From the NCBI GenBank assembly GCA_973895155.1, contig OZ316896.1, forward strand, positions 16,657,752-16,721,751: 64,000 nt of DNA. The letters run 5' to 3'. The notes under the pieces were generated by a model. The model was given only the letters and a program-made list of their open reading frames with translations, ran no database searches and was not told the origin of the DNA. The stretch comes from Marsupella aquatica. Lineage: Eukaryota > Plantae > Marchantiophyta. The translations under genes and the position numbers were made by a program. Shown in pieces: positions 1 through 38,845 of this stretch; within the stretch, counting starts at the first letter, position 1; each line of letters starts with the position of its first letter.

Positions 1-138
1 AGAGATTAAAACGGTGATCACAAGCTCGTAACTCAGCTCTGTGACCACAGCAACCTTAATTAATGTAAACCTTTCCTTGCAAGAGTAAAGAACAGAAAGA
101 AATTTCACATCTCGAAACAGACAAATTTTAATCCTTAC

Positions 139-10420: not shown

Positions 10421-11636
10421 CTGTTGTTGAGGCAAGCACCCCTCTCAGGAACAAGCGCACAAGACTTCTATGAACGGGAAAAAATGCTACTATAGCTTCT
10501 GAGAACCCCACTATTATTGTGACAAGGTCCTTGAACACTCCCTTTCTGAATATTGGTTGCCTTATCTTGGAGAGAAACAGACACTACTGAAGTTGCTTTT
10601 GGCCCAATACTCTTAGAAGGATCTAAGAATAAATGTATACTGTCACTTAATGTTTCTATGTTCTTGTTTTGAAAGGTCTCCTGCTTGACTGACCTGATCA
10701 CACACCTTTTCACTACTGTAGATACTATTGGACTCTCTGGATGATGGGACAGCCCCTGTGGAGGACCATGTTGGTTGGTCTGGTCTGAGAGTATGTAATG
10801 GTGGCATGAACACCTTTGATGTTGTTGAAGCGGGTCAAAATGTGTTGGCCTTTTTGCCTTGAAAGGTCCTGATATGCCTCTCTTGGCCTGCTGGTTTCCC
10901 CCATCCCGGTAAGCAGAGTACCATTGCGAGTTGCTTGTTTTGAAAAATTCTAGGGTTTTGTTTGCCATTCCCCAAGTAAATCATTTCTAAGGTGTCAGGA
11001 TTTTTTTGAAGTGCACAAAAAGCCCAAACCATTTGCCAACCATACTTAAACTTATCTAGGCCACCCTAAAGCCTACTTATTCAACTCGATTGCCTTTCAA
11101 AACACATGGATTTGAGAAATAAGAACCTAGTGTGATCCAAAATATTCTTTTGACACTTGTTCAACAAAATATTATTTTTATATATTTTATAAAGTAAAAT
11201 TGGTCATGTAGATGTATTGTAGAATATTCTCAATATAAAATTGAGATGTATTAATTACTTCAGGATCATTTGTACTTGTCTGGAAAAGTCCACCAAATAA
11301 CCTCCAAGTGAACAAAACAAGAAGCCTTAAGGGATGAGTCCAAAGCCTTATTTCTCTTTTCAAAATCTTCATGATATTAAAAAGTGTATACCAAAAAACC
11401 ACCAAAAAATGGTATGTATTTTCCAAACTAGACTCAAGAGAATTTTACCACCAAAATCTAAGCATATCTTATATGATATTCTCACAATTGTATAAACCTT
11501 GAAATATGCACTTTATAAAAGTAATCAAAATCAAACTCATCGATCAGAGTTTAAGTCAAACTCAAAGTTTTACAAAATATAACCCAACTTAAGCCCAAGT
11601 GGTTTCAAATGCTACGAGTCCCTCTATTTATCTAGT

Positions 11637-14600
11637 CTAATCCAAAGGGACCGCTTCCCCTTCCCCGGTTCCGGAAGTCCCTGTCGTCAATTCTGGAACA
11701 ATTGTGGCATCGTCAACCACGCTATCCTCTCCGGCCTGAGGAATGTCTTCCTCACTCTCCTCATCCATCTCCCCCTGTCCGTCTTCCTCTTCAATGTTAT
11801 CTGCAAGGTTAAGAATCCTCCCTTTCAACACACTGCTCTGTCGCTCGTCAATCTCAATGGCAACGCAATGTCTCCCCATGGCCAAGGAGGAGGTTGTCCC
11901 AGTCCCTGATCCTGAACAAATATCCAAAACCCAGTCTCCAACCTGACTAAAATGACTCACTTCCCAATCTAACAATGCACGTGGTTTCTGATAAACATTC
12001 ACTGCCTTGTTATCCCCGTTGTGTTTCAGCTTCTTAGTCACAGCTGCGCATACAACCACATTGTTCCTTGATTCATTTGTGTCAAAATTGAAGTGCTCCA
12101 ATGACCGTTTACCATCCTGGCTGTGAAAGCCAATTGTAAAGCACTCAAAGTTGCTGTTCAATCTTGGTCCACCAGCATTCTTCACATTATCCTTAACCCT
12201 GAAAAGTCACAAAAAGTCAAGGAGTTATTTAAACTGAGAAACATGGTTCATGAAATCATGAATAACTAATAGTTGTTTTTTTCAAAAACAAATATTTCTT
12301 ACCACACACAATTCTGGAACCCTCCATTACACTCCGCTTTCAAAACGGTCTTGATGGCCTCATATTGGTCAAGGCTGTGGTGAATGATAATACGCCACAA
12401 CTTTGCAGTAGTAGCCACCTTGAACGATTGGACCATTTTTGTGATCTCCTCAGTTCCCCATCCAATAGTGTCTTCATGAAGACATCCAGGCAATGCAAAC
12501 CTATAGGGAATATCCACTAAAGCTAATGTGTAAGCCCGACCCAGAACCACCTCATGTAATCGCTGAGCATCATGAGTAAAAATATCATAGTGCACATCAC
12601 CAAACTCTGGATGCTCAAACGAATTTGGATGAAGTTCCCCCTCTTGGGTTTGCCGACTAGAAGTCTTCATGGATAGCCAATTTTGGGCTTGCACAATATG
12701 CGCATTGAATTTGTCCGGGAATGACTTGAGATCTTTGCCTTCCTCATCTCCCTTCTTTTTCCGGGAGGTGGTATCTTTCTACAAAAAGGAACTGTAGAAT
12801 TAGAAACAAGGATTCCAAATATTAAATGAATTCAAACAATCATTCGAAGAAAGGTGACAGAATCTTACCCATGTCTGGAAAACAGGTACGAAATTCTTAA
12901 GCACATTGTCTGTGCAATGCTCAGGGTACTTGGTTTTACAACCTGACCAACTCTCCTCGTGTAGACACGTGAGGAAGGCCTTCTGCACCTGCATCTGAAA
13001 TTTGTGTCGAGTAAATTCGTGACCCATTTCCTGTAAAGAGAGTTCTTTAGTAAGAACTCTCTGTAACACTGGGCAAATCATATCAGGATCTTTCAAGGCC
13101 TGCATGTGTCTCCACTCTGTTAATTTCATGTCCTCATAAGGCAATTTGGCATCTCCAGACTTAGAGACTTTCTTCTTGCCTTTGTCTCCTTTTTGACCTT
13201 TGATCTCACACATCTCCCACTTGTCACAAATCTGCCTCACAAATGACCACACAGGATCTTGTCGGAATGCCAACTGAAATAGGTTATCATTGGCATTAAG
13301 AACCTCAGCATCCTTTCGTACACCCCAATCCTTGAGATTGATTTCAGTAGCACACTCTTTCTTGAAATCCTGGTTGGACGACAATCCATTCTCAACAAAT
13401 CTCATGTGAATATAATTTACTCTCTGGATTGTCGTCATCTGTTGTCGAAATTCAGAATCAATATTGTGACTCCACGCAAGGTTTCTTGCCTCTTGCACAC
13501 TCAATCCCGCAAATATCCAAGATTGCACTCTCCGAAATGCCTTGTTGTTAGGGAACTGAAGAGCAAGGTCTGCTTTGGCACAGGCTGAATGGTTGCCCCC
13601 AATCACATAATAATGGTAATCAGCTTTCCTTGAAAAATCAAAGTCTTGCCTAGTAGCACACTCCTTCGGATCCACCAAGAGGACAAACGGAGCTGCAAGT
13701 GGACTGGCACCTACAGTCTTCATCCGCAAGGTCAATTGGGTCAAGAAATATGGTTGGATGTGTCGGACCTGGTAAATGGGCAAGCCCACAGCCTTCTCTC
13801 TCACTGGAGGGTAAAGTTGACCAATGTCAACGGTCACGGTCTCCTCTTGAACACCACATCTTCCCAGAATCTCCTCCTGGTACAATACCCGTGCATCCAT
13901 TGACATTGATTGAGCCTTTTGCTCCAAATGCGTTGGAATTTTCTCCAAAGTCTTCTTTTTTGACTTTGTAGCACTGGGCTCGGTAGGCTCAGGAGTCATA
14001 GCAGGTCGCTTCTTTGAAGAAATGCGAGTTCCAGTCGTACCTTGTGCCGACCCACCAGTCAAAGCCGTTCCCTGGGATGATCTGCCAACTTGAGATCCCC
14101 CTCCAGATGCTGCTGCTTCCCGGGAGGTTGTAGGCGCTACCACGGTCAAAATATCATTGGGTAAAATGCTAGGCCTCGATCCAGAAGGAACACCGGAAGC
14201 CCCAGATTTGGGTGGACGACTTACTCCCTTCTCTGCCGACCTTCTCCGGAGAATCTCTCTTGATTTTTGGATTGCACTCTTTAAAGTGCTAGCGTGAAAT
14301 TCAAACACAAAACCGGAAATCTTTCCCGCGACGTCGTGGTAACGTTCCTCACTCGAAAGAGACTTGACAGTCTCAATGATGCTATCGATGTCCTCATCGA
14401 GATAGCAGGTGGCAGCCGTTCCAGAAAACCTCTCCACATCCACGACAATCAAAGTTGAAGTTTCCTTCGTTGTGATCAACATGTTCACAACTTCGTCGCC
14501 CCGTCGAAATACATCGATGCGGCCGTAATTTACCCACCCTAATGCCCCCGATGGAAGCCCCTCAAATACACACAGCATTAGGAAGGGCTTCTTCCATGTT

Positions 14601-14692
14601 TCTGTCCCTAAGGAAATCGTCCAGGATGAGTTGTGGAAGTCTGTCAAAGGATGGCGCGAAAAGATGTCATCCACCAGCTCTTCCTGCGACAT
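11637..14692 (-). CDS. ParB/Srx-like domain fused to a beta-class amino (N6-adenine or N4-cytosine) DNA methyltransferase. Exons 14692-12869, 12778-12303, 12198-11637; 953 aa with no stops or frameshifts after splicing
   Basis: Motif IV-like LALVDIPY precedes CVWVK, YQKPRALLDW, motif I GDWVLDICSGSGTG and motif II GRHCVAIEID (beta-class order). Exon 1 has ParB-like PFVLLV...YYVIGGNHSACA...SVQEARNLAWSHN. Both GT-AG introns splice in frame. Confidence 0.85.
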
Positions 14693-15448
14693 TGTTATGT
14701 TTTTGCCTGATCTTCAAACCTGAGAACATACCACAAAATCAGTCCACTTCAACCCCAACCTGCGAGACAAAGTGCCACAGAACCAAGGAATGTGCCAACA
14801 AATGGCTACTAAAACCGTGTCCTTACGGATCTAACAATGCTCTCGGCCACCCCAGGACTCCTATCATGAATTCATGAAGGGAGTCTCCCTCTCGCTCCGA
14901 CCTTCTTTGCTTGTACACCTCGGTGATGCAGAAGGGTATTTAAAATAGGGTTCGGAGGGGGGTGACGTGAAGAAATCACCCAGGGCCTAAATTACTACCT
15001 AAAACAGGGTCGAAATGAAGTGCGACCGCGACAACTCGCGACACGTCGCCGATGAGTGCTGAAAATGGCACGAAATTGGACAACGAGATTGTTTTTCACT
15101 CTTTTACAAAGGAAATCCAAATGACATTGAGTGAAAATGAATGGGCTGCCCCGTGTTCCTTGGTTATACATACTAATCACGGATCAGGCGCGACTTAGTA
15201 AAATTAACCCAGAATCATGATAAATCAATGTTTTTGGGCCAATTATTCATGAATATTTCGGGGTATTAACGGGAAAAAGCTTGCAAATTTCATGAATATT
15301 TGATATTTTTGAAGTTAAAAAGTCCCAACAATCCGTGAAAAACTATAAATAGGCTCGTTTATTCATGACTCTTGGTCATTATTTTGAGAAGATTTGTTAG
15401 ATTTTACTGATTTTCTGAGTTTCTTGTCAATTTGCACTAGTTTTTCCA
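14693..15448. promoter_or_regulatory. Putative bidirectional promoter between methyltransferase and transposase
   Basis: TATA-like CTATAAATA at ~15343 (+) and an AT box at ~14937-14947 (-). Six TCATGA palindromes lie at 14864, 14872, 15215, 15247, 15290 and 15363. Confidence 0.5.
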
Positions 15449-18400
15449 ATGGCGGCGTGTTACGAATCAGATGATTATTCAGATGGAGTTTCTGATGATG
15501 TTTCATTGCCGGATGGCCCCTGCACAGTGGTTGGCCCAGATATCCCTGGAATAACTACTGTTTTAGATATGCCACCCCCACCCCTATGAGCAAGTTAAAA
15601 CGTAGTCCTTTACGACTTGCAATTAGTGGGAAGAAATCATTGGTCGGTGGTAAAGAGAGGTCAAGGAGCTCCTCTGACTCCTTGGAGAGTATTGGTCCAC
15701 CTGGACGTCAAGTTGTATCTCCTTTGTCACCAACAAAGGACAAATTGGGGAGTAATCTGGAAGGTTCAATGCCTATTTGGATGTCTGGGAAACGGTCTCA
15801 TGAATTCATGAAGACTGGATTTGGAAAGACGAAGAAGGCACTAAGTGGGGAAAATGACAGAGATTTTTGCAGTCTCCAAAGTGTTCAGCGGCTGAAGCAA
15901 ATGCCAAAAAGTAAAACCTTTGGTAAGCCACCATCGGAAACATTTCACAGGGGGATGAGGGAAGAAACTAGACGACCAGTGTTATTGAAAAGTATTCCAG
16001 AAAAGAATTCTAATGTGCGTTCCTCAGTTTTACCTAGGAGTCATGGTGTTGGGGCAGGGAGCGGATCAAGTCACGGAAACTCAAACAGGGAAACCAACCT
16101 GGTGGAGAGGGACCCTAGGAAAATATTGAAAGGGTCCCTACACGGTAATGGAGGGATTTCTGAAATACGCCCAGGTATTCCAAGGGTGCATAGAGTGAAG
16201 GAAGAGCCTCCATCTCCGAAGGCTGCAGGTCTGGAATCTAGGCATGTTCAGAAGCAAAAGTTGGTGACCATTTCATCATCGAATGAAAGCGAGTCTTCGG
16301 AGAGTGGGGAGGATGATGATGTTCCGGTGGCATCTAGTCGTTACAAACGTACGAGCAACGCCACTTTGTGTGAAACAAAGTTGAAAGAGGAGGATATCAA
16401 GAAAACAAATAGTAAGTACTGTTGTCAGAGTCATTGTCTCCTAAGTCTATCTCCAAAAGAAATTTGTGAGGCGCGTTCTAAATTTTTGAGGCAGAAATCT
16501 CAGGATCGATCTTTATCTTTGCAGTGGCTTATAAAGCGAGACGGAAATGAAGGAGGGAGGCAGACTATATCTTACACGTTTGGTCAAAAGAGTATTTGTC
16601 GGAAAGCTTTCAAGCTTATATTTTGCGTTGGCAATCATAGATTAAATAGAATTTTGAAATTAGACAACCAAGACTTAGGATATTCTAAACCAGTTGGACG
16701 CCCTCCATCTGTTAAAAGATTAGTCTTGGTCAGTTGGCTTAGGTCATTTTTTGAGACACGCGTGGAAACATTGCCAAATAAAGAAGTTTTACATTTACCG
16801 GATAATTATTCAAAGCTGGAGGTATGGAAGATCTACGACTCCAACTATGCCAAGATTGATGAATCTTCAAAAATATCCTATCGACAATTCTTGAAAGTTT
16901 GGGTTCAAGAATTTGGTCATGTGAAGATTCCTCCAGTCAATCGATTCAGTGCTTGCGCGGATTGCGAGGAGTTCAAATCAATTCGGGACAAAGCTGTCTC
17001 GGAGACCGAAAAGAGTAAGTTACTTACAAGTTTGACAAGTTTTTGTTTCAAGAATATGGCTTAACACATGATTTCTAATTTTTTTTGAAGAAACTAACAA
17101 GTTGTTTTTCCAGGGCGAGGGGAAATTATGTTAAAAAAACATAGAGACCAACAATCCAAAGAACGTGAGAAACTCGCAAAGCATCGTAAGAAATGTTTTT
17201 CAAATTCTGATAAATATTTGGGAGTTGTCATTGATGGGATGGATCAGAAGAAGACAAGGTTGCCTCATTGGCCGCGGCCCCCAAAATCGGTGGACGAAAC
17301 ATGTTTGATCCAAATGCACGTTGTCGGATGCCTGGTTTTCAATGGTGCACTATTTTCAAGAGTGTTTCTTAATTATCCTGTATTGCATAATGATGGAAAC
17401 TTGACAGTCACAATCCTGCAAAGGGTGTTTCACGAATGGGAAGAAAAGCCTAGTGGCTTGCCGCCTGTTCTCTATCTTCAACTTGATAATACCAGTAGAG
17501 AAAATAAAAATAATTTACTCTTTGCCTATCTTCATATGTTGATTCGAAGAAAGGTTTTTCGGAAAATCAAACTAGGATTCTTGTTGGTTGGACACACACA
17601 CGACCAAATAGATCAAATGTTCAGTCGATTTTCTAAACGACTAGCAAGGTTTAAGGCATTCACATACGAAAGCCTATGTGATATTATTTGTGAATCATAT
17701 CAACCCCAACCAAATATCACTCTTTTAAAGGAAACATATGATTTCCGTCAATATGCCTTCTCAGATCCACCTTTAGTCATTGAAAGGATTCGAAATGTTA
17801 CCTTCCACCACCAGTACAAATTTGCATTTGACAAGTTGGAAAATCAAGTTCCAACCCAATGGGGGAAGAAGTTTTCCACGGACTCAACTTGGAAACCTGA
17901 CGGAGGCGTGAAATTTTTGAGGGAAGAGGAGCCAGAAAAGGTGATGGGTTGTGCTCCCGGATTACCCCTTTTCAAAAAGGGGGATAAGAACGTTACAAGG
18001 ACTCAACCAAATATGTCTAGTTCTTCAAGAATGACTTTGAAGGAGATGGATGATTCGTTAAATGAGATTCAAAAGGGAATACTTGCAGTTGAAACTTTAT
18101 TCTCAGAAGAGGAAGTGAACTGGTGGAGAATGTTTTTTGAAGAGCAACGAGAATTGAATAAATCTTTGCTCCTTGATCAAAGACCATTGATTTTCCCTTT
18201 TCAATGGCCACGCTCCCAAAGGGAGATTGCTGTTGCTGCTGAAGTTCCCAGAGTCCTTGTCAATGTAAATTGAAGAGAGAGTATACAGACCTACCAGAGA
18301 TATATACGTGGGTCCTTATCGGAATCAAGGAAAGATAGATGCAGAGAAGGAGAATATGGAAGGAGACTTTTCGGATCTTGAAGTCAACACTTATATTTCT

Positions 18401-18841
18401 GTTGCTGGAGAAGAATCGGAAACATTTTGGGTGGCCAAGGTGGAAAGAATTGACCAGCGCGACGAGTTCAACATTCCAAAAATGATTTATGTTTTATGGC
18501 ATGCTACAAAAACCGGGTCAGATCCTTGGAAAGCCAAGTACTTACCAGAAGTCTTAAACTACGAAAAGAAGAAAAGTGGTCGTGGGAAAGGAACTTTGAA
18601 ACCAATATGGTTTCACCAAGAGCTTGATTTATCTTCAACGACTGTTTTTGCTTACAACTTCATGTTGACAAAATCTGATACATTGTACAAAAAGACAGCA
18701 GATCGAATCAAAATCCAATTGACTGAATTTTTGGCAGAAGAGAAAGAGCAAGAACAAGAGAATGGATCAACTAGAACCCCGCTAGGAGATAAATCTAGGG
18801 ATATTTCGTTTCAAGAATTGAGGACTTCTGGATCTGAGTAA
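15449..18841 (+). CDS. Sola-like (DDD, RNase H fold) transposase with a C-terminal beta-barrel domain. Intron 17015-17113; apparent 1-bp frameshifts near 15580 and 18270
   Basis: Cys motifs CCQSHC and FSACADC, and catalytic-like IDGMDQKK, LYLQLDNTSRENKN and FLLVGHTHDQIDQMFS. The intron joins ORFs 15586 and 17128 in frame (EK-R-RGEIML). The superfamily name rests on recalled motifs only. Confidence 0.72.
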
Positions 18842-20283
18842 TGAAAAGTAGTTATTGTTTGTGACATTACCATTGAAAAACATGGATAACTTGAAAATTT
18901 ACAAATTTTCAAAATGCCTTTACCACTTATTCATGAATTCATGGTTAAAGTTTCTTGAGAAATTTGTAGTTTAATATTATCTTAGTGGGTTGTGTTTCAA
19001 TTCAATTAGATGGTGTCATTTCTATTCTCCTTGTCTTCTTTTCACAATAATGTGTATCAGGTTAAGTTGTAGTAATTTATTTTCTGGTTTTTAAATGACA
19101 ATGGCTTTTGGAGGTGATTTAGTTGTTGTTTCAAAAGACACCTCGTGTAATTGTGAGACCATTGTAGATAATAGTGTTGTATTTGAGATCATTTATTGGT
19201 GGAATGTAACTTCAGATGAATTTGGTCATTTTTAGGTGTCAAAACATAGCTAGTTTATGTCATATTTTGTTCGCTCCATATTTTTGCTCTAAAATAGGTG
19301 CTAATTTTTGCACTTTTTTTGACTTTTTCGTTGTTTTTCTGATTTTTTGGCTAGAGTTCCTAAAGTATGGGCTTGTTACTCATCATTTAAGGCTTCTTGT
19401 TACAAATCTAAAATCACATTGCACCCATTAATTCAACCTGAATACAAGCAAGTTACATCTGGACCCCAGGTTTGGCCTTGACGGGCATATTGGGGTCTCG
19501 ACCCCATCAAACCGGCATCCGTCACCCGGTCGCCAGGTCCACCACCCACCCGGCCAGCCCCAACCCCGACCCCAACCCCGCCCCTACCATTTTCGACCCA
19601 GCCCCAACCTCACCCGGTCCCCCACCCACCTGGCCCGCCCCGACCCCGACCCTGCCCCCACCATTTTTTACCCAGTCCAGCCTCGACCTCACCCGGTCCC
19701 CCCACCCACCCTACCCTGCCCGGCTGCGACCCCAAACCGGGGGACCGGCTCATTAGACCAGGGGAGTCCAGGGGGAGTCATGGGGAAAAATTGGGAATGG
19801 CCCGGGAATCAACGGGAATATGCATCAAATTGTCTGTTTTTGGTCCGTCATTTGACAGTTTATGTGCCCCGCAAGGCGTCAAGTTGCCCGTTAGGTTAAA
19901 TCTGGTCTGGACCAGCATGATTATACAATTTCTTTGGTTGGTACAGGCTGGAAGTAAGATAATGGTGTGTTATTGGGTTTAATAACAGATAATTTTCTAC
20001 ATATAATAGATTTTTAATTCTAGCATCTTACTTATATAGCGCCAACTATGATCTAGAGTTGGGGCCTAGGTTTCTAGAGTGAAGCCTCTACTAGACCATA
20101 ACTACATGGTTCACCATGTAAATGGGAAAACTTATGGCTATGAGATATGTTAAATGATAACTATCATGCATGCTTTTTGTCATTATTTCTACTTACATTC
20201 AAAAATGGACTCTGTAGCCCCACCATAACATATGTGCAGGAAGAGGGATGTGCATAGAAAAGATGGTGGCATGTTATGTATGA

Positions 20284-20520
20284 CTAGCTCAATATCGGTG
20301 TGTTGCACAAAGATTTTGTGAAGAAAATAGATGTTGTATCGTCTAAAAACTTGTTAAGGAAAAAAAATGTTGCTAACAAAAAGATGTTGTGTCGCCCAAG
20401 ATGTTGTTAAGAAAAAAAGATGTTATATCGCCCAAGATGTTGTTAAGTTAAAAGATGTCGTGTCACCTAAGATGTCGTAAAGAAAAAAAGGGGTGGTGTC
20501 GCCCAAGATACAATCTTTAA
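20284..20520 (-). mobile_element. Non-autonomous Helitron-like 3' end with a degenerate ~30-bp minisatellite (copy 1)
   Basis: Plus strand A|CTAG-ctcaatat-CGGTGTGTTGCACA is the reverse complement of a hairpin followed by CTAG. It is followed by repeats of AAGATGTTGTGTCGCCCAAGATG. Confidence 0.55.
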
Positions 20521-20755
20521 AAAAAATGATGATGTGTATGATGGTTTTTTTCATTTCATTAAAATTCAAAGAATATAAGTAGAAGATATACTTTGGTGAC
20601 ACTTTTATTGTCCTAAGTGCTATTTCTTTGGTAGTAGGGGCTAGTTGTGATTAATATTTATAACATTTTATTATTACACATTACATACTATGCCAACTAC
20701 CAGCATTACTTGCTCATGAAGGATCTCCCTTCTCAACTATATACTTGATTCCCTT

Positions 20756-27453: not shown

Positions 27454-27834
27454 TAGCGGAATTGGACAGCATCAATCAAGGATCAAATCTATTAGAAAAA
27501 TTGACTCAAATTCCCAGCTTAGTTAGGTTGGCCTTACCCAGGGTTAGTTAACCCTCGATTGCTTTAGGAGAACTCAGATTCACTTATTTAGGCCCACACA
27601 TCCCATATCCCATAGGGGGGATAGGTTGGAAGAACATCTTTCTCTTCCTCATTTTCATATGTAATCTTTCATGTTATAGATGCTTCATGAGTCTTTTCAT
27701 TGTGGTGTCTTGTTAGTTTTGAGTGAGATTGAGTGCACACTCATGTTTTGCACTGTGTTGTCTAGTAAGTGCGCTTTCATCAACCTAGACAAAATTTCTC
27801 AATCATGTTGTCCAATTTTTGCCAGATAAAGATG

Positions 27835-28187
27835 TGTCATGCCGAGGGACAGTGCCGCTTGTGCACATCGGCATGTCCCTCGCATGCCCGCTAGGTATGG
27901 TTAGGGCTAGTGTACTACTTGAGTTAGTGTCATGTTCTTGTAGCGAGTCTGGGCTGTTCTTGAGGTTTGTTAGTGTGACGCCTGGACCCGGTCCTACTTA
28001 GGGCATGTTTTTCTTTGCTGTTCTTCAGTTCTTCTTGAATCGCTGTGAGACAGAGTTTTTCAGAGGCTGCTCGTCGATTCCGTACACGGAATTCACACAG
28101 TGATTCGTTAGATGCTCCCGGCCGATCTTGGCATCTCGCCGGTTTTCGATTCGATTTCAGTACGTTTGTTTCTATCACGCCTTTTAT
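27835..28187 (+). repeat. Terminal repeat A1 (353 bp)
   Basis: Direct repeat of 36998-37350; begins TGTCATGCCGAGGG. Confidence 0.95.
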
Positions 28188-28200
28188 TCAAGAAGAACTG
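28186..28200 (+). other. Putative self-priming primer-binding site
   Basis: ATTCAAGAAGAACTG sits at the 3' edge of A1 and is the exact reverse complement of CAGTTCTTCTTGAAT at 28026-28040. No tRNA-type TGG... PBS is present. Confidence 0.6.
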
Positions 28201-29442
28201 CCGAGTTAGCGGTGAGGAGAAGAAGTTTGCTCGTGGCAATTTCGACAATTTCTGGTGAAGCCATTGCAATTTCTTCGATGGACATTGGAGTGACGAGTTA
28301 AAAGTTATGGGTTTATTGTGGTGTTATGTGTATACTTAAGTGTATACACATAACAAGGGACCCGGATTTTTATTTTCTGGCCGCAACTTGTTTCGCGACT
28401 TGCTGTTGTCGACTGCTGCATCGACGCCGACTTCAAAGGGCACACCCACGCTCGTGTTTTTAACGACCTCTTTGGGGCCCTTTTTCGTTTACCGGCCACT
28501 ACTGCCTCGGCCACCGCGCGCCCCTTTTCTTTCGCCCTTTTTCGCCTTGCCAATCCTCGAAGTTCCTCCCTCCGTTTGTTTTCCTGCCTTTTCTTCTCTC
28601 GGTATCTCGCAGGCTGTGCGCATAGGGCATCGTGCCCTCCCACTGGCAGCATTTAATTAACGAGAGGAGGGGGAGCGAGTGCAAGCCGGGAGGAGGAGGC
28701 ACAGAGGCTACGAAGCATTAAAGGGGGGGGAGTACATTCGACTCCCTCTCTCGGGACTCCTGCCAAGCACGAGGCCTAACTTACAGGGCATTAAAGGAGG
28801 GGAGGGGAGGGGAGTTCAATTCGAACTCCCTCACACGGTGACACAGGAGTCTTTTTGCAGGGCACGAAGCCCATCCAACAGCATTAAGGAGGGGGACGCA
28901 ACAGGAGGGCACGAGGCCCTATGAGGAATTAAAGAGGGGGGGAGTACTCGCGACTCCTCTCTCGGGAGTCACTCGCTGCCAGGGCACAAGGCCCAAAAGG
29001 GGGATAGGGGGAGCTCATAGTGGGGCACGAAGCCCTATGCAGGGCCCGAGCCATTAAGTTGTCACCTCGCCTCAGCCTCGCCTCGCCTCGCCTCGCCCTG
29101 CAGCATAGGGTACGGTGCCTCCCGAGTGTGCGTACACCTGCTTCTTTCCGGCCTCTTTTTCTTCCAGGGAGCCCGACGATGTATCCACATTGGGCACCGA
29201 CCGGTGCCCTTTATGTGTATACACAGACCCCTGTCTATACACATAACGGAGGCCCCTTTTGACCATTTCCTCTTGTTTTCTTTCCATTCATTTTCTTGTG
29301 AGCATATTTTTGGCAGGGCCGGTCTACACATTTCTGCCTCACAGTGTTGTTTCCTTTGTGGGTTACATTTCATAGCCTTGGGGTTGCCACACCTTTTTCT
29401 TGTCAGTTTCTTTCCTATTGGCACCCCGGGTGAGCATGCAGC

Positions 29443-32120
29443 ATGTCAGCAGAGGAGCCGAGTCGTAGCAGCTCATCGCCACCGACACCCCGGTACCACT
29501 TACGGAGTGATCCACGACCGTTGGTGCCAATTTCATTGGAGTCTCGGCAATTTCGACGACGTCCACAGACAGCAGCAGCACACACACCACGCAATCCTCC
29601 TGCTACATTTGGCGGTCGCTTCACCACTACTCCGAAGCCTGCTATCACTTCATTGCCATTTACCCCTTCTACATCCGTGGTTGTTCCTGCTTCACCGACA
29701 TACAGCATGGATGCCAGCCACTCATCTGGCCGCATTGAACGCTTCAGCGGGCGGCCAGGCACTGTTTCTTTACGTGAGTTCAAATCCACTTTCTACACTG
29801 TTGTTTACGAATTGGAGTTGAAGTACGGCAGCAATTTCACAAATGCTTTTGTATTTAAGCAGCTAGCCAGGTATGTGCACCACGAGGCTTTGGATGTGTA
29901 TGAGCAGCACTCTCAACGGCTGCTTGCTGTCACACAATTGCCTAACCCTGCCTATGCCAGTGCAATTGCGGCTGCCTCACAATTGACATTACAGAATGCC
30001 ATTGCAGCCCATGCTGCTGCTCCTGCCACTTCCCCTCCTACTCCAGTTCCTACCACTGCGCCAGTTACTCCCACTATCTTGGCACAGGCTACATCAGGCA
30101 TTTCTCCCACCATTGATTCCCCTGCCTTTGTTGATCCAGTGGCTGAGTTTTTCCAGGTTCTTGAATTGGGATTCCCAATCAAGAGTGCTGACAAAATCAT
30201 GCAGTTGGCGACCTTTGTGAGGCAGCGTGATGAAACCTTGAAGATGATGTATCGTCGGCTTCTTAAGCTAAAGGAGGACACCCAGAGCATCACTGACTTG
30301 GAAGCTGCTCATCGCTATCTTCGCGCATTGGAGGGCACACCAGCTCTCCATTCACAAGTGTTGCAGCAAGTATTCTCAGAGTTTGGAGAGAGCTACACAT
30401 TGCTCAATGTCTACGACACTGCTGAGAAACTTGAGTTGGCCCATGCACATTATGAGGCCAGTATTGCGCATCCACCGCGATCTAGGTACCAGGCTGCTGC
30501 TCCTACAATGGCCACCCCTTCCCGTGTGCCACAGTATGCTTCCAAGACCAAACCAGCACATGCTGCTTTCATGCTGCCCTCTTGCAACTACTGTGGCAAT
30601 CCTAATCACAAGGCTAATGAATGTGATATTGTTGCTGAGGACCTGTCTTGTGATTTTTGTGGGAAAGTGGGCCACTTGGAGGCAGTTTGTTTTGCCAAAT
30701 TCCCAGAGAGGAAGCAGCTACAACAACAGGCCACTCATCCTACTCCTGTTTCCACTCCCCCACCAGCTAGGAGGGCTCCTACTGCATCAGTTGCTCCTCC
30801 TTCTAGTGGCAAAGCAACTAGTGCCAACAAATTGCCCAAGCAGCCACAGAAGCCCCCAGCTCAGAAGGAGGCTCACAACGCACAGGCAACTCAACTCCAG
30901 TCTCTGACTCATGAGGTTGAGTCCTTACGTGCCCAACTTGCCAACATCAAAGGCAAGTCCACTGCCTCTGCTGGTCCTTCTCAACCGGCTGGTCACGTGC
31001 AACCCATCCCTGGCCCAGGCACCGCTGACAGTTCAGCACCTCTACCCCGCTCTTTCTATGGTTTACCATTTGATGCTCATATGGGTGAGTGTGTGCTGTC
31101 CTCTGCTCCACAGCCTGGCCTTACAACAGAATTTTCAGATTCATTCTGCCCTTCATATTTTGCTTACCAGCAGGCCAGTGTTGCCTCCCGTATTGCTCCC
31201 ACACGCCGCATTGTACAGGCTGATGGTCTTGCTGCCGGTCCTATGACTAGAGCCAGGGGAGCTCGGGCTATCATGCCCCAATCTTTTCAGCCACTCACAC
31301 TTGCTGAAGAGCGCACCTTGTTGGCGAGGGGGGAGGGAGCTGCAGCTACATCCATTCCACCACCAAGTGCTGCTGACATTTCACAGGGAGTTGTTTCTCC
31401 TGAGCTGCTTGAGCATTTCACCTCCGGTATGGCACAAAGGATTCTTACAACTCCACTTTTCAGTTGCCATGATTTACAGCTGGATGCTAGAGCTGTCCTC
31501 AGGGCGCTAGAGGGTTCACTGCATTCTTCATCAGCCCCTGTGACACCGGTTTTGGAGGTCCAATCTCATGTACATACTGGACCTTCTTCTTCTCCTTTAC
31601 ATGTTTCCACTGGTTTGGCTGCCCCAGTACCGATTGCTGCTGATTGTGTGACCAGAGCTACACTTGATTCTGGTCATGCTGCTCCATCTTTCCTGGCTAT
31701 GTTGTTGAGTGGAAAGACCGTGGACACTAACTCCCTTCACAAGGTACCTCATCATTTGCCGAGAGTGGTGCCTAGTGACAGGACTTCAGTTTCCACCACC
31801 ATTGCCATTGTTGACAACAGGAATTCAGTGGTCAAGTTGGAGGGTCACACTCCTCAGGTGGTCATGCTAGACACAGGTGCTCAACCAGTGATATTGGGCA
31901 TTCAGTTTGCCAAGAAGATGGGACTGCTGACTGATCATTTACAGCAATCCAAGTGGCACATTCGGACTGCTAGTGGCACTGTGGAGGATGTGCTGGGTGA
32001 GAGTTTACTTTACTCACTCTCACTTTTAATGGAGGTACAGATCAGGAACTGCATTTCCCAGTCAGATGTCTGGTTACCAATGCCACTACGTATGATGTGC
32101 TCATTGGCCAGGAGGCTTTG
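29443..32120 (+). CDS. Gag (two CCHC zinc knuckles) plus aspartic protease; frameshift near 32010
   Basis: CNYCGNPNHKANEC, CDFCGKVGHLEAVC and VMLDTGAQPVILG. The protease C-terminal YDVLIG continues in the 32097 frame. Confidence 0.9.
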
Positions 32121-32529
32121 TTCCCACCAGGTTTTACCATTGACAACTGGCATGAGCATGCATACTACAGAGTTGATTGGCATACTGATGGCTCACACTT
32201 GGGCTATATTCCACTTGATTTGCATGGTGCCCATACACCTATGGCTCACCACTGTGTGTTGAAAGCAGTGCACACAGCTACCTATGTCAACCACCCATTG
32301 CAAGATTGGATTGTGGAGGATGACGATGAGGTGGCTGCTGCACATGCTGCTGCATGTATAGCAGCACTTTCCAGCAACGTGGATCATCAACCAGAGGTGG
32401 TACAACGGCTCCAAGCAGCCCATGGACCTTTGGTGGCTACATTGCGCAAGTTTGAAGACCTTGGGCAGCACAATGGACAGCCAATAGCCCCAATCTTGAG
32501 CGCACCAGTTACATGGACTCCTGCTCCGG

Positions 32530-33475
32530 ATGGCCTTACATTGCTTGAGCTTTTTGGTGGCATTTCTACAGGCCTGGAAGCTCTCCTACAGTCTGGCATG
32601 GTGATGAAGCAGTACATCTATGTGGATATTGATCCAGGTGCAAGGCAAGTGGCTGAATCCCGTCTGCTGGAATTTTCAGAGCGATTTCCTCAGCAGTTTC
32701 CACACAGTGCAAGGAAGTCTACATTTTCTTTCTTTCCTTCAGATATCCAGCTTGTCCAGCACCGGCACTTAACCCTTCTTGGCTCCCTTGATTTGATCAT
32801 AGCTGGTTGGGAATGCCAAGGGTTTTCAGCTGCTGGTCACGGTGCTGGACTGCATGATTCTCGTTCTGGCCTTTTCACAGCATTGGTTCAGATTCTCACC
32901 TGGGCTCAATCCCTTTATCCTGCTGTTGGTTATATCATTGAGAATACTCCATCTCAGTTTGACCAGCGACCACAGGTCAAAGAGGATTTCAGTGTGGTCC
33001 AGCACTACTTGGGACCACCCCTTCTCATTGATGCAGTGCACTGTGGTTCTTATGCACATCGTCTTCGTAACTTTTGGACTAACCTTGCACCACCTTCCTT
33101 GTTGGAGTTAGCTCTTCACCACACATCCAGGGACACTAACCTCACAGTGGACCAGATTTTGGATCCTGACAGTTCTTGCCAACCAGTTACACGGCAAGAG
33201 CCAGCACCTTGGTATCCAGCCAATACCATTGGACAGCCCCGTGCTGCTTGGCCTACATTGTGTCCTTTCCAGGTGCACATGCTTTTCAGGGTGATGGTCC
33301 TGGCCTGGTTTACCGACATTCTACCGGTACATGGGATGAACCTAGTCCTGAGGAGAGAGAACGGGCTATGGGCTTCCAATCTAGTACTACAGGTCACACC
33401 CAGATCACCAGGCTGGCCAGGAATGCTTTACTTGGCAGGGTAATGGATCTCAATGCTCTCACTTGGCTTCTGGTC
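32530..33475 (+). CDS. DNMT3-like C5-cytosine methyltransferase domain inside pol, between PR and RT; 1-bp frameshift near 33260
   Basis: Motif I LLELFGGI, II YVDID, III DI, IV DLIIAGWECQGFS, VI YIIEN and VIII AHRLRNFWTNL. Motifs IX-X ERERAMGF...ITRLARNALLGRVMDLNALTWL lie in the 33176 frame and resemble the DNMT3A C-terminus. Confidence 0.9.
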
Positions 33476-33589
33476 ACTTGCATCCTTTTTCAGATGTCCA
33501 TTCCTCCAGCATCAGGAGTTCCAGTTCTACCACTCCATGGTGCACTTACCTTTGTCCAACACTCACCACTTCAGTCCCAGTGTTGGGGG

Positions 33590-35147
33590 GGAGGAGGTCC
33601 CTTGTAATGTGGCTGACATTATTTCTGAGTTTCATGGTGTGGATCAGACCAGAGCAACAGATACAGCAGGCCTTGGAGAGGCCTCATCACTTTATCAGCA
33701 GCATGCTAGCAGCTTGGACAGTGGAGAGGCTAGCACTTCTGGCTCTTCAAGCACGAGTACATCAGGTCCTATTCCTAGTGTTGCGAACTACACATTTATC
33801 ATGGGCAACCACTTGAGTAAAAGACAGAAGGACCAGCTGCTGAATTTGCTCCTCAAGCATGAGAACGTGTTTGCTTTCTCTATGAAGGACTTGGGTAAGT
33901 GCAAGACTATGCAGTTCTCCATTGAGTTGGCTGATGAAACACCTATCTTCAGGCGAAGACACCGTTTGAGTAAGCATGAGTGGCAGTTGGTGGATGAGAG
34001 GTGCCAAGAGCTCTATGAAGCTGGTCTTATTCAGCCATCTACATCAGATTTTGCAGCAGCTACAATGATGCCTGCAAAGAAGGATTCCAGTGGATTGTGG
34101 ACAGAGAAGCGCATGTGTGGGGACTACAGGCCACTAAACCTGGTCACACCCCAGGACAGGTACCCCATGCCACGGCCAGAGGAGCTATTTGATAGCATTG
34201 GAGACTCAGACATCTTCACTCTTGTGAATCTAAGGCAAGGCTTTAACCAGATTTTGCTGCTTGCAAAGGTCCGCAAGAAAACAGTTTTCCATGGTAGTAA
34301 CCAACTATGGGAGTGGTTGGTGATGCCATTTGGCTTGAAGAATGCGCCCATATTCTTTCAAAGAGTCATGGACCAGGTTCTTCAAGGTGCTGAGTTTCTG
34401 AAATGCTACATTGATGATGTGTTGGTCCACAGCAAAGGATTTGACCAGCATCTACTTGACCTTGAGGAGCTATTCATGAGGCTTAAGAAGGTGAACCTAA
34501 AGATACACCCCAAGAAGTGTGAATTTGCTGTCAGATCAGTAGTATATCTTGGGCATCGCATTCTTCCAAATGGAACCATGGCTCACTGGGCCAAGGTGGT
34601 ATCCATCTTGGAAATGCCCACTCCTACCGATGTTCACACTTTGAGGAGTTTTATTGGGTTGTGCAATTACTACCGAATCTACATCAAAGATTTCAGTACC
34701 ATTGCACACCCATTGTATGCTTTGTTGAAAAAGAATGTGACTTGGACATGGAGTACAGATGCTGAGGCAGCATTTGCCACTTTGAAGGAGAAGCTCTCAG
34801 AATACCCGGTGTTGAGAAGACCTGATTTCAGCAAGGTCTTTGTGTTACACACAGATTGGAGTGCCCTTGGGATTGGTGCCATTCTGGGCCAGCATGATGA
34901 GGAAGGTAAAGAGTACGTCATTGCCTATGCATCCAGGAGCAACAATCAGGCAGAGAGTCATTATTCTTCTTATGAGGGTGAATGCCTTGCTGTTGTGTGG
35001 GCTGTCATACATTATAGGCCCTACCTCTATGGGACCAGGTTTGTTCTCTACACCGACCACCAGCCCTTGAAGTGGTTGATGACCAACGACAAGCTTACTG
35101 GCAAGCTTGCTCGTTGGGCGCTCATACTCCAGGAGTATGATTTTTAG
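33590..35147 (+). CDS. Reverse transcriptase and RNase H (first RT Asp reads Asn; TAG at 35145 probably from CAG)
   Basis: KRMCGDYRPLN, MPFGLKNAP, YIDD, HPKKCEF, LHTDWS, EGECLAVVWA and YTDHQPL. Confidence 0.95.
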
Positions 35148-36780
35148 GTAATTCATAGGCCTGGTGTGACACATCAGAATGCTGACACTATGTCCCGCAG
35201 CCCTTTGATTACCTCTGATGATTCCTCAGATGCACGGCAAGATTTTGACCAGGCTTCCATCCTGCCTACATTTCATGCATCGACCTATCTTGCTTTGCTG
35301 CCATGCTATGTTGTTGACCAACCTATGGTGGACATATGGGAGGACAGCGACACTCTGAGATTTCTGCTGCATGGGGAGTACCCCTCACATGTTACTGCTG
35401 CCCAGAGAGACCGAATTCAGCAAAGGTCCAAGCGCTACTTGTGGAAGGGAGATCATCTCGTGCGTTGCTTGCCAGACAGGGAAGTGGTGGTTCCACCTAT
35501 TCATGAGAGGGTTGGCCTTATCCGTAAGGTACATTCTGAGCTTGGTCATTTTGGTGTTAAGAGGACTTACAGCCTCTTGGTCCCTCATTATCATTGGAGA
35601 GGCATGCATGGCCAGGTTCGAGATGTTATTGCCCGGTGTGAACAGTGTGATAGGGTGAGGACTTCCTTCACATCTCGACAACCCACACTTCATCCACTCC
35701 CTATTCAGGGCATGTTTTATCGCTGGTCATATGATTTGGCTGGAGAATTACCCCTCACGTCTCGGGGTAATCTCTACATCATGATCATGATAGAGCATTT
35801 CTCCAAGTGGATAGAACTTGTGGCATTGCCGGATAAGACCTCCCATAGCACCAGCCAGGCATTCCTACAACAAGTTCTCAGCCGCTTTGGAGCTTGTGCA
35901 GAATGTCTCACTGACCAGGGCTCAGAGTTTAGAGGAGAGTTCCAGGAGCTGCTTGATCAGGCCCTCATTGATCATCGCCGGACATCACGAGATCACCCAC
36001 AGGCAGATGGCTTGGCAGAGCGCATGGTTCAGACATGCAAGAAGGGCCTTCGGAAGATCTGCCTCACCAAAAACAAGGAGGATTGGGACCTGGCCTTACC
36101 CTACATTGCCATGGGGTATAGGATGTCCAGACATGCATCACTGTCTAACTTTTCTCCCTACTTCTTGTTGTTTGGTCGTCACCCAGTTCCACCTTCTGCT
36201 ATTGCTTCTCACATGTTTCAGGTGGTGGACTTGGATTCAGCTGTGACTTGGTCTGATGTGATCTCTGAGAGGGCTGCCCCTATTCAGGAGGGTTATGCCC
36301 ATGGCCATGGAGAATTTGGCCATTGCACAGCACAGGGACACACTGCGTTATGCACACACACGAGGGGGCACTTTTCAGCCCAAGGTCAGGAAGTTTGAAG
36401 TGGGAGATTTTGTGTACTTGCAGCGGCAAGCTAACGACACCCTGGACACCTCTACCAGTCGCACTATTCTGAGGGTCAAAGCTATTCGACCGTCTGGAGT
36501 GCTAGAGTTACAAGGGGCAGATGGGCGCACAATTGCTGACAATGCCAAGAATTGCGCCCCTTGTCATCTGCCTAACCTGGATCCCACCATTGTGACTTCT
36601 ACTTGGATTCCACCTGTGGACTACCCTTGCAAAGTGTGTTTGCGAATTGATGATGCTGACCAGATGCTGCTGTGTGACAATTGTAATGGAGGGTACCATC
36701 TTTTCTGCCTTCGGCCTGAACTTACCCAGGTGCCAGAAGGGTTATGGTTTTGCCCTTCCTGTGCTCCACGTGCTATCTGA
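35148..36780 (+). CDS. DDE integrase (HHCC plus core) with a C-terminal PHD finger; frameshift near 36280
   Basis: HSELGH...CEQC, WSYDLAG, LTDQGSEF and QADGLAER. The PHD reads CKVC...MLLCDNCNGGYHLFC...VPEGLWFCPSC (C4HC3). Confidence 0.93.
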
Positions 36781-36812
36781 CTTTTCTTTAGCCCTCCTTT
36801 TGGCTGTGGTCT

Positions 36813-36820
36813 GGGGGGGA
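36813..36820 (+). other. Polypurine tract (G7A) immediately before repeat B1
   Basis: CT-GGGGGGG-ATACAGAGG, ~30 bp after the pol stop and abutting the start of B. Confidence 0.7.
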
Positions 36821-37526
36821 TACAGAGGTTTACACCTCCACTACGTACATACCACCTCAGTTGCTTTTTCTTGGCACCTGTGAATGTGATTGGACTTTTT
36901 CTATGCATGTTGGTTGCTAGCAGCTTGCACATATGCATTGCCGGTGACTTGTATGTTTTCGATACACTATGGCTACGATACTATATGTCACGACAGCTGT
37001 CATGCCGAGGGACAGTGCCGCTTGTGCACATCGGCATGTCCCTCGCATGCCCGCTAGGTATGGTTAGGGCTAGTGTACTACTTGAGTTAGTGTCATGTTC
37101 TTGTAACGAGTCTGGGCTATTCTTGAGGTTTGTTAGTGTGACGCCTGGACCCGGTCCTACTTAGGGCATGTTTTTCTTTGCCGTTCTTCAGTTCTTCTTG
37201 AATCGCTGTGAGACAGAGTTTTTCAGAGGCTGCTCGTCGATTCCGTACACGGAATTCACACAGTGATTCGTTAGATGCTCCCGGCCGATCTTGGCATCTC
37301 GCCGGTTTTCGATTCGATTTCAGTACGTTTGTTTCTATCACGCCTTTTATATACAGAGGTTTACACCTCCACTACGTACATACCACCTCAGTTGCTTTTT
37401 CTTGGCACCTGTGAATGTGATTGGACTTTTTCTATGCATGTTGGTTGCTAGCAGCTTGCACATATGCATTGCCGGTGACTTGTATGTTTTCGATACACTA
37501 TGGCTACGATACTATATGTCACGGCA
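36820..37526 (+). repeat. Right-end repeat block B1-gc-A2-B2
   Basis: B1 36820-36995, spacer GC 36996-36997, A2 36998-37350, B2 37351-37526. The B1/A2 junction is the palindrome GACAGCTGTC. Confidence 0.95.
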
Positions 37527-37844
37527 GATGTTGTCCAAGAGTATTTTGATTCCCTTCCATTCCCTATGTCTTTCATGAGGGTTTTTTTTGGGTTAGTTTT
37601 ATTTCAAGTTGATTCTTCTCAATTTTTGGCTCAAAGTGTTGTTGGAGAAGTTTGTGCTTGTTATGTGACTCCAAGCCAGATTCCTAGTGTATTGCATGCT
37701 CGGTTCTTCCTATCTTACTTGGTGTGATTCCTTCCATGAGCTCACTTGCCTCCATCTAGAAATTGTTAGGTGAAGGTATCATGAGCTCATGCCTTCATAC
37801 TGAGGTCACCACATGGGTGGGTATATGCCTTGCATTCTATTCTA

Positions 37845-38100
37845 CGAGCTCAATACCCGTGCGTTGCACAAAAGAAGTCGTGTCGGCCAAGATGTCGTTG
37901 AGAAAAAAAAGAAGTCGTGTAAGCCAAGAGGTCGTGGAGAGAAAAAATGACGTGTCGGCCAAGAGGTGGTTGAGAGAAAAAAAGTCGTTGAGAAAAAAAG
38001 ATGTCATGTTGGCCAAGAGGTCGTTGAAAAAAACTTGTCATGTCGGCCAAGATGTCGTTGAAAAAAAATGTCGTGTCGGCAAAGATATCATTGAGAGAAA
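37845..38100 (-). mobile_element. Non-autonomous Helitron-like 3' end with minisatellite (copy 2, same family as 20284)
   Basis: A-CGAG-CTCAATACCCGTGCGTTGCACA followed by repeats of TGTCGGCCAAGATGTCGTTGAGAAAAAA. Confidence 0.55.
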
Positions 38101-38845
38101 AATAGAATTATTTATATATGAATAGATTTATATAAAATTTGATTAATTTTTTCATTGTGGCAGGTATGGGAAGGTTAAAGGGTAGTTTGGGCATTTTTAA
38201 AAGGGGTGTATGGATAGATCTAACAGTGTGGAAAAAATTATGTTTTAATAAACATTCAAGATTGATTGTCACTTTTTTTAGTTTGTAAAGGGGCTGGATC
38301 AAGATTATAGTGGTACATGGTAAAAGGAGGTCTCCATGATACTCTTGCATTGCTAGAGACCCTCCTTATTTTCTTTGTACTATTAAATTCATTTTGTGCT
38401 TGGAAACATTGCTCTCCATTTTCATTCACAAAAGATATCATTCTTTCATGTTTTTCATTTTTGGGATATTGCAAATTTGAATGACTACTATCATTATTAT
38501 ATTTTTCAATATTATAATACTTGTAATAATATATAGTATCATATATATTATGTACTTTTGTATTTCATGTGTATACCTCCTTGATACTCATGCATGTACA
38601 TTCATTCTCTTGTTTTGTGTGCCCCATTGGTTCTAGCATTGGCTCCCTATTTTTGTGTCTCCCATTTGATTCCCCGTTTGTTTGGAATGTATTTATTATC
38701 TTTCGGTGCACACTAAATTTAATACAACCTTTATTCCTTCTCTTTGACATGATTAATATTTTTTAGACACTCTAAATTTGAATGATGACCACTTCATAGA
38801 AAGGCGCAACCTTGTATTATAATTTAGGATGTTCACTGTTTAGGT

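Follow-up and report, generated by a model that had tools for sequence, protein, structure and literature searches.

An attachment site inside the long terminal repeat of a liverwort Ty3/Gypsy element, and its probable integration from an end-joined two-LTR ring

A green-lineage group of Ty3/Gypsy retrotransposons carries an attachment (att) site inside the long terminal repeat (LTR), and its members probably integrate from a two-LTR ring that is closed by end joining and cut by the DDE integrase at the upstream att site. One member occupies positions 27835-37526 of a 64,000-nucleotide stretch of the liverwort Marsupella aquatica (GCA_973895155.1, contig OZ316896.1, positions 16,657,752 to 16,721,751 of the forward strand; here called the window). 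The element reads A1-internal-B1-gc-A2-B2, where A and B are direct repeats, and it starts with TG, ends with CA, and is flanked by a 4-bp target site duplication (TSD). It is a defective Ty3/Gypsy copy that encodes a DDE integrase, a C5-methyltransferase, and a PHD finger. Its termini fall in mid-LTR, at the boundary of B and A, and not at the LTR edges that are defined by the primer-binding site (PBS) and the polypurine tract (PPT). The internal att layout is family-wide and deeply conserved, from chlorophytes to liverworts.

The element is built of the following parts.

27831..27834, plus strand: left TSD, GATG (repeat comparison; empty site)
27835..28187, plus strand: A1, the 5' terminal repeat, starting TGTCATG; putatively the 3' part of U3 plus R-U5
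28026..28038, plus strand: predicted self-primer (RNA 5' end), reverse complement of the PBS (complementarity; two compensatory changes in the sister family)
28188..28200, plus strand: PBS adjoining A1, without TGG and hence not of the tRNA type
36813..36819, plus strand: PPT of seven G (GGGGGGG) adjoining B1
36820..36995, plus strand: B1, putatively the 5' part of U3, ending CACGACA
36989..37004, no strand: internal att site CACGACA-GC-TGTCATG, with GACAGCTGTC as its palindromic core; not cleaved in the integrated copy
36996..36997: GC spacer between B1 and A2
36998..37350, plus strand: A2
37345..37356, no strand: A2/B2 junction TTTTAT/ATACAG, the likely join of both ends defined by reverse transcription
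37351..37526, plus strand: B2, the 3' terminal repeat, with the CA end
37527..37530, plus strand: right TSD, GATG (repeat comparison; empty site)

Repeat comparison reproduces exactly the order, the TG and CA ends, and the GATG duplication that had been put forward from the letters of the window (hereafter the original prediction). A1 and A2 differ by 3 mismatches in 353 bp and B1 and B2 by 1 in 176 bp, and because the pairs differ at only 4 of 529 positions, the insertion is young. CACGACA and TGTCATG form an inverted pair that agrees at 6 of 7 positions. No further copy of A or B lies inside the window.

The insertion is supported by its empty site. Contigs of four runs (X1 to X4) were aligned to the window element, and two of them, X1 rec 1 and X4 rec 15 (one organism, one study), join 27829 to 37526 with a single GATG and read as predicted: ...GATAAAGATGTTGTCC... 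A contig from a second organism (X2 rec 9) has the filled left junction, yet it holds only 28 element bases, below the 31-base bar. Misassembly at 36820-37526, which the original prediction had named as its own possible undoing, is contradicted by independent contigs that bridge both the B/A junction (X2 rec 14) and the A/B junction (X1 rec 8 and X2 rec 16). The window copy alone fits either a 4-bp GATG or a 5-bp AGATG duplication. Seven of the 11 exact duplications in the sister family described below do not reach 5 bp, and we therefore regard the 4-bp TSD with a CA end as settled.

The same ends recur throughout the element's own family. Run contigs leave the element at 36995, where B ends in CA (14 contigs of X3, 9 of X2), and enter it at 36998, where A starts with TG (13 of X3), and the flanks of these boundary contigs are unlike one another (agreement 0.40-0.46). 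In each of the four runs, the PBS follows the end of A at 37350. The 12 joints listed, beyond which lie 182 loose ends, include none from PPT to A. A single contig in X2 and another in X3 run from just past the end of A back into the final bases of the PPT (joint 37366/36817), possibly with PPT letters retained. The G-rich repetitive 5' leader at 28640-29060 varies between copies; contig cover there is far below that of the rest of the element, with several skips.

A sister family extends the survey to independent insertions. It consists of the best 80 of 537 relatives from a metagenome scan, with integrases 66-81% identical to that of the window; 11 were dropped as duplicates, leaving 69 distinct loci. 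Window A and B give no blastn alignment to it. Its 3' ends are BAB at 27 loci, B at 26, BA at 2, AB at 1, and none or a contig edge at 13, such that BAB accounts for 27 of 56 scorable ends, while all 23 of the 5' ends carry one A only. No ordinary LTR pair was found among the scorable ends. Among the 20 loci with both ends (19 sites), TSDs are exact in 11, differ by one transition in 6 and by two in 1, and are absent in 2; some ends were set by eye, and an exact match has a chance of 0.75%. Thus, A...BAB with TG/CA ends and 4-bp TSDs recurs at independent insertions, as the original prediction expected of a family. The ordinary paired LTRs that it said would overturn it are not seen: B occurs in none of the 23 5' ends, and none of the 12 listed joints of the window's own family connects PPT to A.

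Departures from A...BAB are likely products of later recombination, which would give the A...B and solo A-B forms. The AB end is accounted for by a separate solo A-B with its own CAAT duplication (L122), and one of the two BA ends (L084) is rearranged. A single insertion site reads A...B in the assembly of L095 and A...BAB in that of L120. We therefore rejected the A...B copies as proof of insertion from one-LTR circles, since recombination or assembly collapse can make that form. Moreover, the A repeats of one locus are closer to each other than to same-position copies in 65 of 66 quartets, and the B repeats in 262 of 300, although quartets are not independent. That pairs are closer within than across loci argues that A and B are each recopied from one template in every cycle.

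The two junctions within BAB behave differently. At B/A, the spacer between CA and TG is 2 bp in 27 of 29 sister loci by script, and the other 2 were misanchored and are 2 bp by eye. Its letters are AC in 10, GC in 7, GT in 6, AT in 2, TC in 1, and AA in 1, a range that would fit decay from GC. The internal att site that the original prediction placed at this boundary is thus borne out, and its 2-bp spacer is kept family-wide. At A/B, the junction is precise in only 13 of 29 loci and is otherwise clipped or extended (versus B/A, Fisher p 1.3e-4), leaving scars that look end-joining-like. Four loci have an intact A1 end and yet a clipped A/B junction. The six junctions of the -2 class do not form one clade (approximately unbiased test, p 2e-6) in a tree that excluded four loci with insertions or a missing PPT. 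Finally, the A/B junction of L126 contains an insert of about 135 nt from upstream of the PPT, together with the PPT itself, as would be expected from an upstream (misprimed) plus-strand start followed by joining of the cDNA ends into a ring.

Priming appears to be internal to the element. The PBS, the 13 bases after A1, is the reverse complement of 28026-28038 within A. The sister family has a different PBS that matches a different partner, with two compensatory changes, and 9 to 12 of 12 positions match in 21 of 23 loci. Complementarity and covariation together predict an element that is self-primed rather than tRNA primed. The primer site of the original prediction therefore keeps its position next to A1, and its type is refined to a putative self-priming site. 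Folding of the whole region gave unremarkable z-scores (-1.1 and -1.3), and the fold of L106 lacks the primer helix. At the other end, the PPT adjoins B in all 29 sister loci printed. In the standard LTR model, the positions of the PBS and PPT set the cDNA ends. With the PBS after A and the PPT before B, that model gives a cDNA of B-gc-A...B-gc-A whose ends lack CA, in support of the earlier proposal that the LTR defined by reverse transcription is B plus A.

The coding regions of the window copy are as follows (ORF, open reading frame).

29434..32262, plus strand: Gag-like ORF that includes an aspartic protease and a Cys/His knuckle-like motif; the frame breaks close to the end of the ORF (PF13975, 3.4e-5, below the curated cutoff)
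32001..33443, plus strand: C5 cytosine methyltransferase region with a frame break near 33257 (PF00145, 9.5e-7)
33444..35147, plus strand: reverse transcriptase (RT) plus RNase H, in-frame stop at the end (RVT_1, 6.8e-26; RT_RNaseH, 1.2e-38)
35148..36398, plus strand: integrase zinc finger and core with a D,D(34)E triad, frame broken near 36277 (Ty3-G, 9e-21; PFV IN, 8e-17)
36262..36780, plus strand: integrase C-terminal region with a PHD finger (PF00628, 1.4e-12)

The ORFs are interrupted near 32005, 33257, 35147, and 36277. The insertion is young and yet its ORFs are broken, and therefore the window copy was probably mobilized in trans. A Pfam scan of 19 window frames found no recombinase family; four reverse-strand frames and one forward frame of at least 100 amino acids that overlap pol lay outside the scan.

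The group reaches far beyond liverworts. RT matches form an 89-row clade (SH-aLRT 99, in a quick tree with several long branches) that includes proteins of Klebsormidium, Closterium, Marchantia, and Haematococcus, most with a PHD finger and often with a methyltransferase. D,D(34)E spacing occurs in all 61 scorable clade proteins (20 were unscored). Outside the clade, 16 of 20 scorable proteins have a spacing of 35 and 4 have 34, the latter all PHD bearing, and chromodomain-bearing matches also fall outside. The Klebsormidium nitens protein P0089, of the DNMT-RT-IN type (DNA methyltransferase, RT, integrase), lies inside the clade on a long branch, and the methyltransferase region of the element is 29% identical to it over 436 amino acids. 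Three proteins (P0088, P0091, and P0105) have the D,D(34)E spacing and a PHD finger before the integrase, the order given for Chlamydomonas Gypsy-7a, and two of these (P0091 and P0105) carry PF05869 in place of the C5 methylase.

The internal att site can be followed to distant relatives. At loci with 40% RT identity, a G-run is followed 57-115 bp on by GACA-GC-TG in 4 of 4 scorable cases, a pattern with a chance of 1.5-3.5% per 2 kb, and L145 shows B-A-B. Of the others, L144 and L146 are collapsed assemblies with B-gc-A only, and L147 and L148 stop before the LTR; L144 to L149 come from bacterial genome records and are probably eukaryotic contigs contaminating bins. The A...BAB layout was absent from L001 to L004 (35-41% identity), which were examined from 63 RT-scan loci, and scans of viral contigs with integrase queries gave no match.

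Curated Chlamydomonas entries show the layout as well. Here and below, statements on published work refer to the accessible parts of each source. In the library that accompanies PMC9940879, 10 of 11 GACAGCTGTC matches have LTR-like surroundings, with a G-run close by in 9 of these, and Gypsy-14a is a full A...B-gc-A...B. B plus gc ends 10 of the 12 internal entries seen, Gypsy-1 to -8b (5a in reverse orientation), while Gypsy-1 and -4 are ordinary; these entries were read by eye and stand outside the RT tree. Gypsy-7a and Gypsy-8 have a B of only 8 bp, and Gypsy-7a has a tRNA-type PBS. The 8-bp B of Gypsy-7a matches the remark in the Fig. 6A legend that its left LTR is without the final 8 bp (PMC9940879). 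We lean, by a little more than even, toward an old PHD-finger, D,D(34)E Gypsy lineage, spanning chlorophytes to liverworts, for which the two-LTR circle is the obligatory substrate, the att site has moved inside the LTR, and end joining builds the right end. PAT/Ngaro elements may owe their split repeats to the same logic.

How the element inserts can be laid out in five steps. Its RNA would start near 28026 and prime itself at the site after A1, as complementarity and covariation suggest. Reverse transcription would yield linear B-gc-A...B-gc-A with AT...AT ends that lack CA, as the PPT and PBS positions indicate. Both cDNA ends would then be joined to create A/B, where the scars lie. By the chemistry of retroviral integrases, the enzyme would make a nick 3' of CA on both strands of the upstream att site, giving CA-3'OH ends with 2-nt GC overhangs, as from normal 3' processing; in vitro, foamy virus integrase does cleave LTR-LTR junctions that are palindromic (PMC1180852). 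Inserting these ends with a stagger of 4 bp would give A...B-gc-A-B with the terminal gc lost, which is the product observed. That joining precedes cleavage we infer from the 8-bp B of Gypsy-7a, which could hardly be held unjoined. The choice of the upstream site is the pattern observed, and our guess is that integrase is loaded close to the left end of the cDNA, given that B measures just 8-180 bp.

Several points weigh against this reading. A ring with two equal att sites should, given 12 full A...BAB loci, yield about as many A-B-A...B loci, and this mirror form occurs in 0 of 23 sister-family 5' ends. Clipped junctions partly cluster: they are nonprecise in 6 of 7 copies of one clade (support 96/90), and the sisters L078 and L082 share one odd junction, a clustering that fits inheritance or a lineage bias. 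For most loci the contig does not include A1, and variants of the A end may therefore account for some scars. Moreover, 2 of the 20 full loci (L081 and L091) have no TSD, and the window copy cannot itself encode a full Pol. Finally, the data are assembled contigs only, with no free circle, linear cDNA, or RNA among them. Circle integration by an internal att site, as originally predicted, is thus the best model and agrees with the family pattern, but it is a deduction, and in its plain two-LTR form it foretells mirror copies that are not seen.

Two other routes share the internal att site with the ring model and differ in how B2 arrives. In one, integration comes first: the upstream att site is cut on linear cDNA, both att ends are inserted, and, once in the chromosome, the loose end of A is joined by host repair to the loose start of B, with no free ring. 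This route accounts for an identical structure, the TSD, and the junction scars, but the 8-bp B of Gypsy-7a and -8 would need to be held unjoined, and repair of a chromosomal break should more often lose larger pieces than a set with 13 of 29 exact junctions suggests; we consider it unlikely. Somewhat less likely still is a templated route, as in the PAT/Ngaro model or by an extra template jump, in which RT copies B2 onto the A end without ligation and integrase again cuts att. One-sidedness would be easier to explain this way. Both ends are AT, such that a 2-nt clamp could account for the six junctions of the -2 class, and there is some clustering of junction types. The commonest junction, however, retains both ATs (13 of 29), four junction types occur in one clade, the -2 class is polyphyletic, and L126 carries its PPT-upstream extension. 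That the window holds a one-off rearrangement, an autointegration product, or a misassembly of an ordinary element with an A-B LTR is highly improbable. A2-B2 alone does resemble a canonical TG...CA LTR, and a solo A-B exists (L122), but the family survey, with B in 0 of 23 5' ends and no PPT-A join among the joints listed, refutes this idea, and independent assemblies as well as the curated Chlamydomonas entries share the layout.

Whether circles can be a source of integration is a long-running question. If the ring model is true, a lineage whose termini need cDNA-end joining would be a clean natural case of circle-fed integration, whereas the usual view of circular cDNAs, for retroviruses and LTR elements alike, is that they are dead ends (PMC1180852). 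Gypsy-7a is active in laboratory strains, with 86 new insertions in Chlamydomonas CC-4532 (PMC9940879), which makes the reading testable in a ready laboratory model. LTR finders and repeat libraries would miscut such families, as the library entries suggest, and dating by LTR pairs would have to use the A/A and B/B pairs.

Elsewhere, the window holds imperfect 32-nt inverted arms (11316-19401) around an unassigned 637-amino-acid ORF and two further ORFs:

11637-12206, minus strand: N6/N4 DNA methylase ORF (PF01555, 1.6e-8)
17098-18273: DUF7869 ORF (1.5e-51)

This region is possibly a DNA transposon carrying a methylase, with no clear TSD. Arrays of 35-37 bp repeats lie at 20371-20524 and at 37862-38101. 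The second array flanks the element directly on its right side and is highly abundant in the runs. On the minus strand, 135-4630 contains exons of a MEI2-like RNA-binding gene, one exon being 92% identical to Calypogeia fissa, which points to a host that is probably a leafy liverwort.

Among known systems, the element resembles Ty3/Gypsy in its gag-PR-RT-RH-IN order, its DDE integrase (best solved relative Ty3-G), its TG/CA ends, and its 4-bp TSD. It differs in lacking two like LTRs at termini bounded by PBS and PPT, its termini lying at B/A, and in having D,D(34)E rather than D,D(35)E. At IS3/IS911 circle junctions, a DDE enzyme also cuts abutted ends, and the junction is made anew by the transposase. 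The IS3 analogy of the original prediction therefore holds for the cutting step and fails beyond it, since here CA-gc-TG is passed on as part of the LTR, and the junction that is new and variable is A/B. Foamy virus integrase likewise cuts abutted ends across a short palindromic spacer, but there the circle junction makes the att site and cutting restores ordinary ends, whereas here att is pre-encoded in the LTR and the product is permuted (PMC1180852). The predicted self-priming PBS recalls the Tf1/Tcn1 chromoviruses, for which the arrangement is described in REXdb, but the integrase C terminus is a PHD finger with no chromodomain found; "PHD" is absent from the accessible REXdb text (PMC6317226).

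The closest relatives are already partly in print. Chlamydomonas reinhardtii Gypsy-2, -3, -5, -6, -7a, -8, and -14 have entries that end PPT-B-gc before an A+B "LTR," the group has a PHD finger, and Gypsy-14a integrase is D,D(34)E by eye (Craig 2023, PMC9940879). They differ in a B of 8-60 bp and, for Gypsy-7, in a TGG tRNA-type PBS and a PHD finger listed before the integrase, and they are filed as ordinary Gypsy with no mechanism given in the accessible parts (PMC9940879). KnitGypsy-Dnmt3 of Klebsormidium nitens, which is presumably P0089 and hence RT kin, combines Gypsy domains, a cytosine methyltransferase inside Pol, and DIRS-like repeats (de Mendoza 2018, PMC5890265, Fig. 4c legend). The layout that the original prediction believed undescribed was thus noted there without a mechanism: the accessible main text contains neither "circular" nor "target site" and no att, TSD, or PBS/PPT mapping, and a term search of the supplement adds nothing. 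Our literature search, with Repbase, theses, book chapters, and most subscription papers beyond its reach, found no published account of the att site or mechanism. As far as we have searched, what is new is the explanation of a variant of LTR retrotransposition whose layout had been glimpsed earlier. Finally, PAT/Ngaro elements of the DIRS order share the A...BAB split direct repeats, an internal copy of the joined termini, and a proposed circular intermediate (PMC7192593), but the element has a TSD, PBS, and PPT and no tyrosine recombinase in the scanned frames. The finding thereby connects the layouts of DDE and tyrosine-recombinase retroelements.

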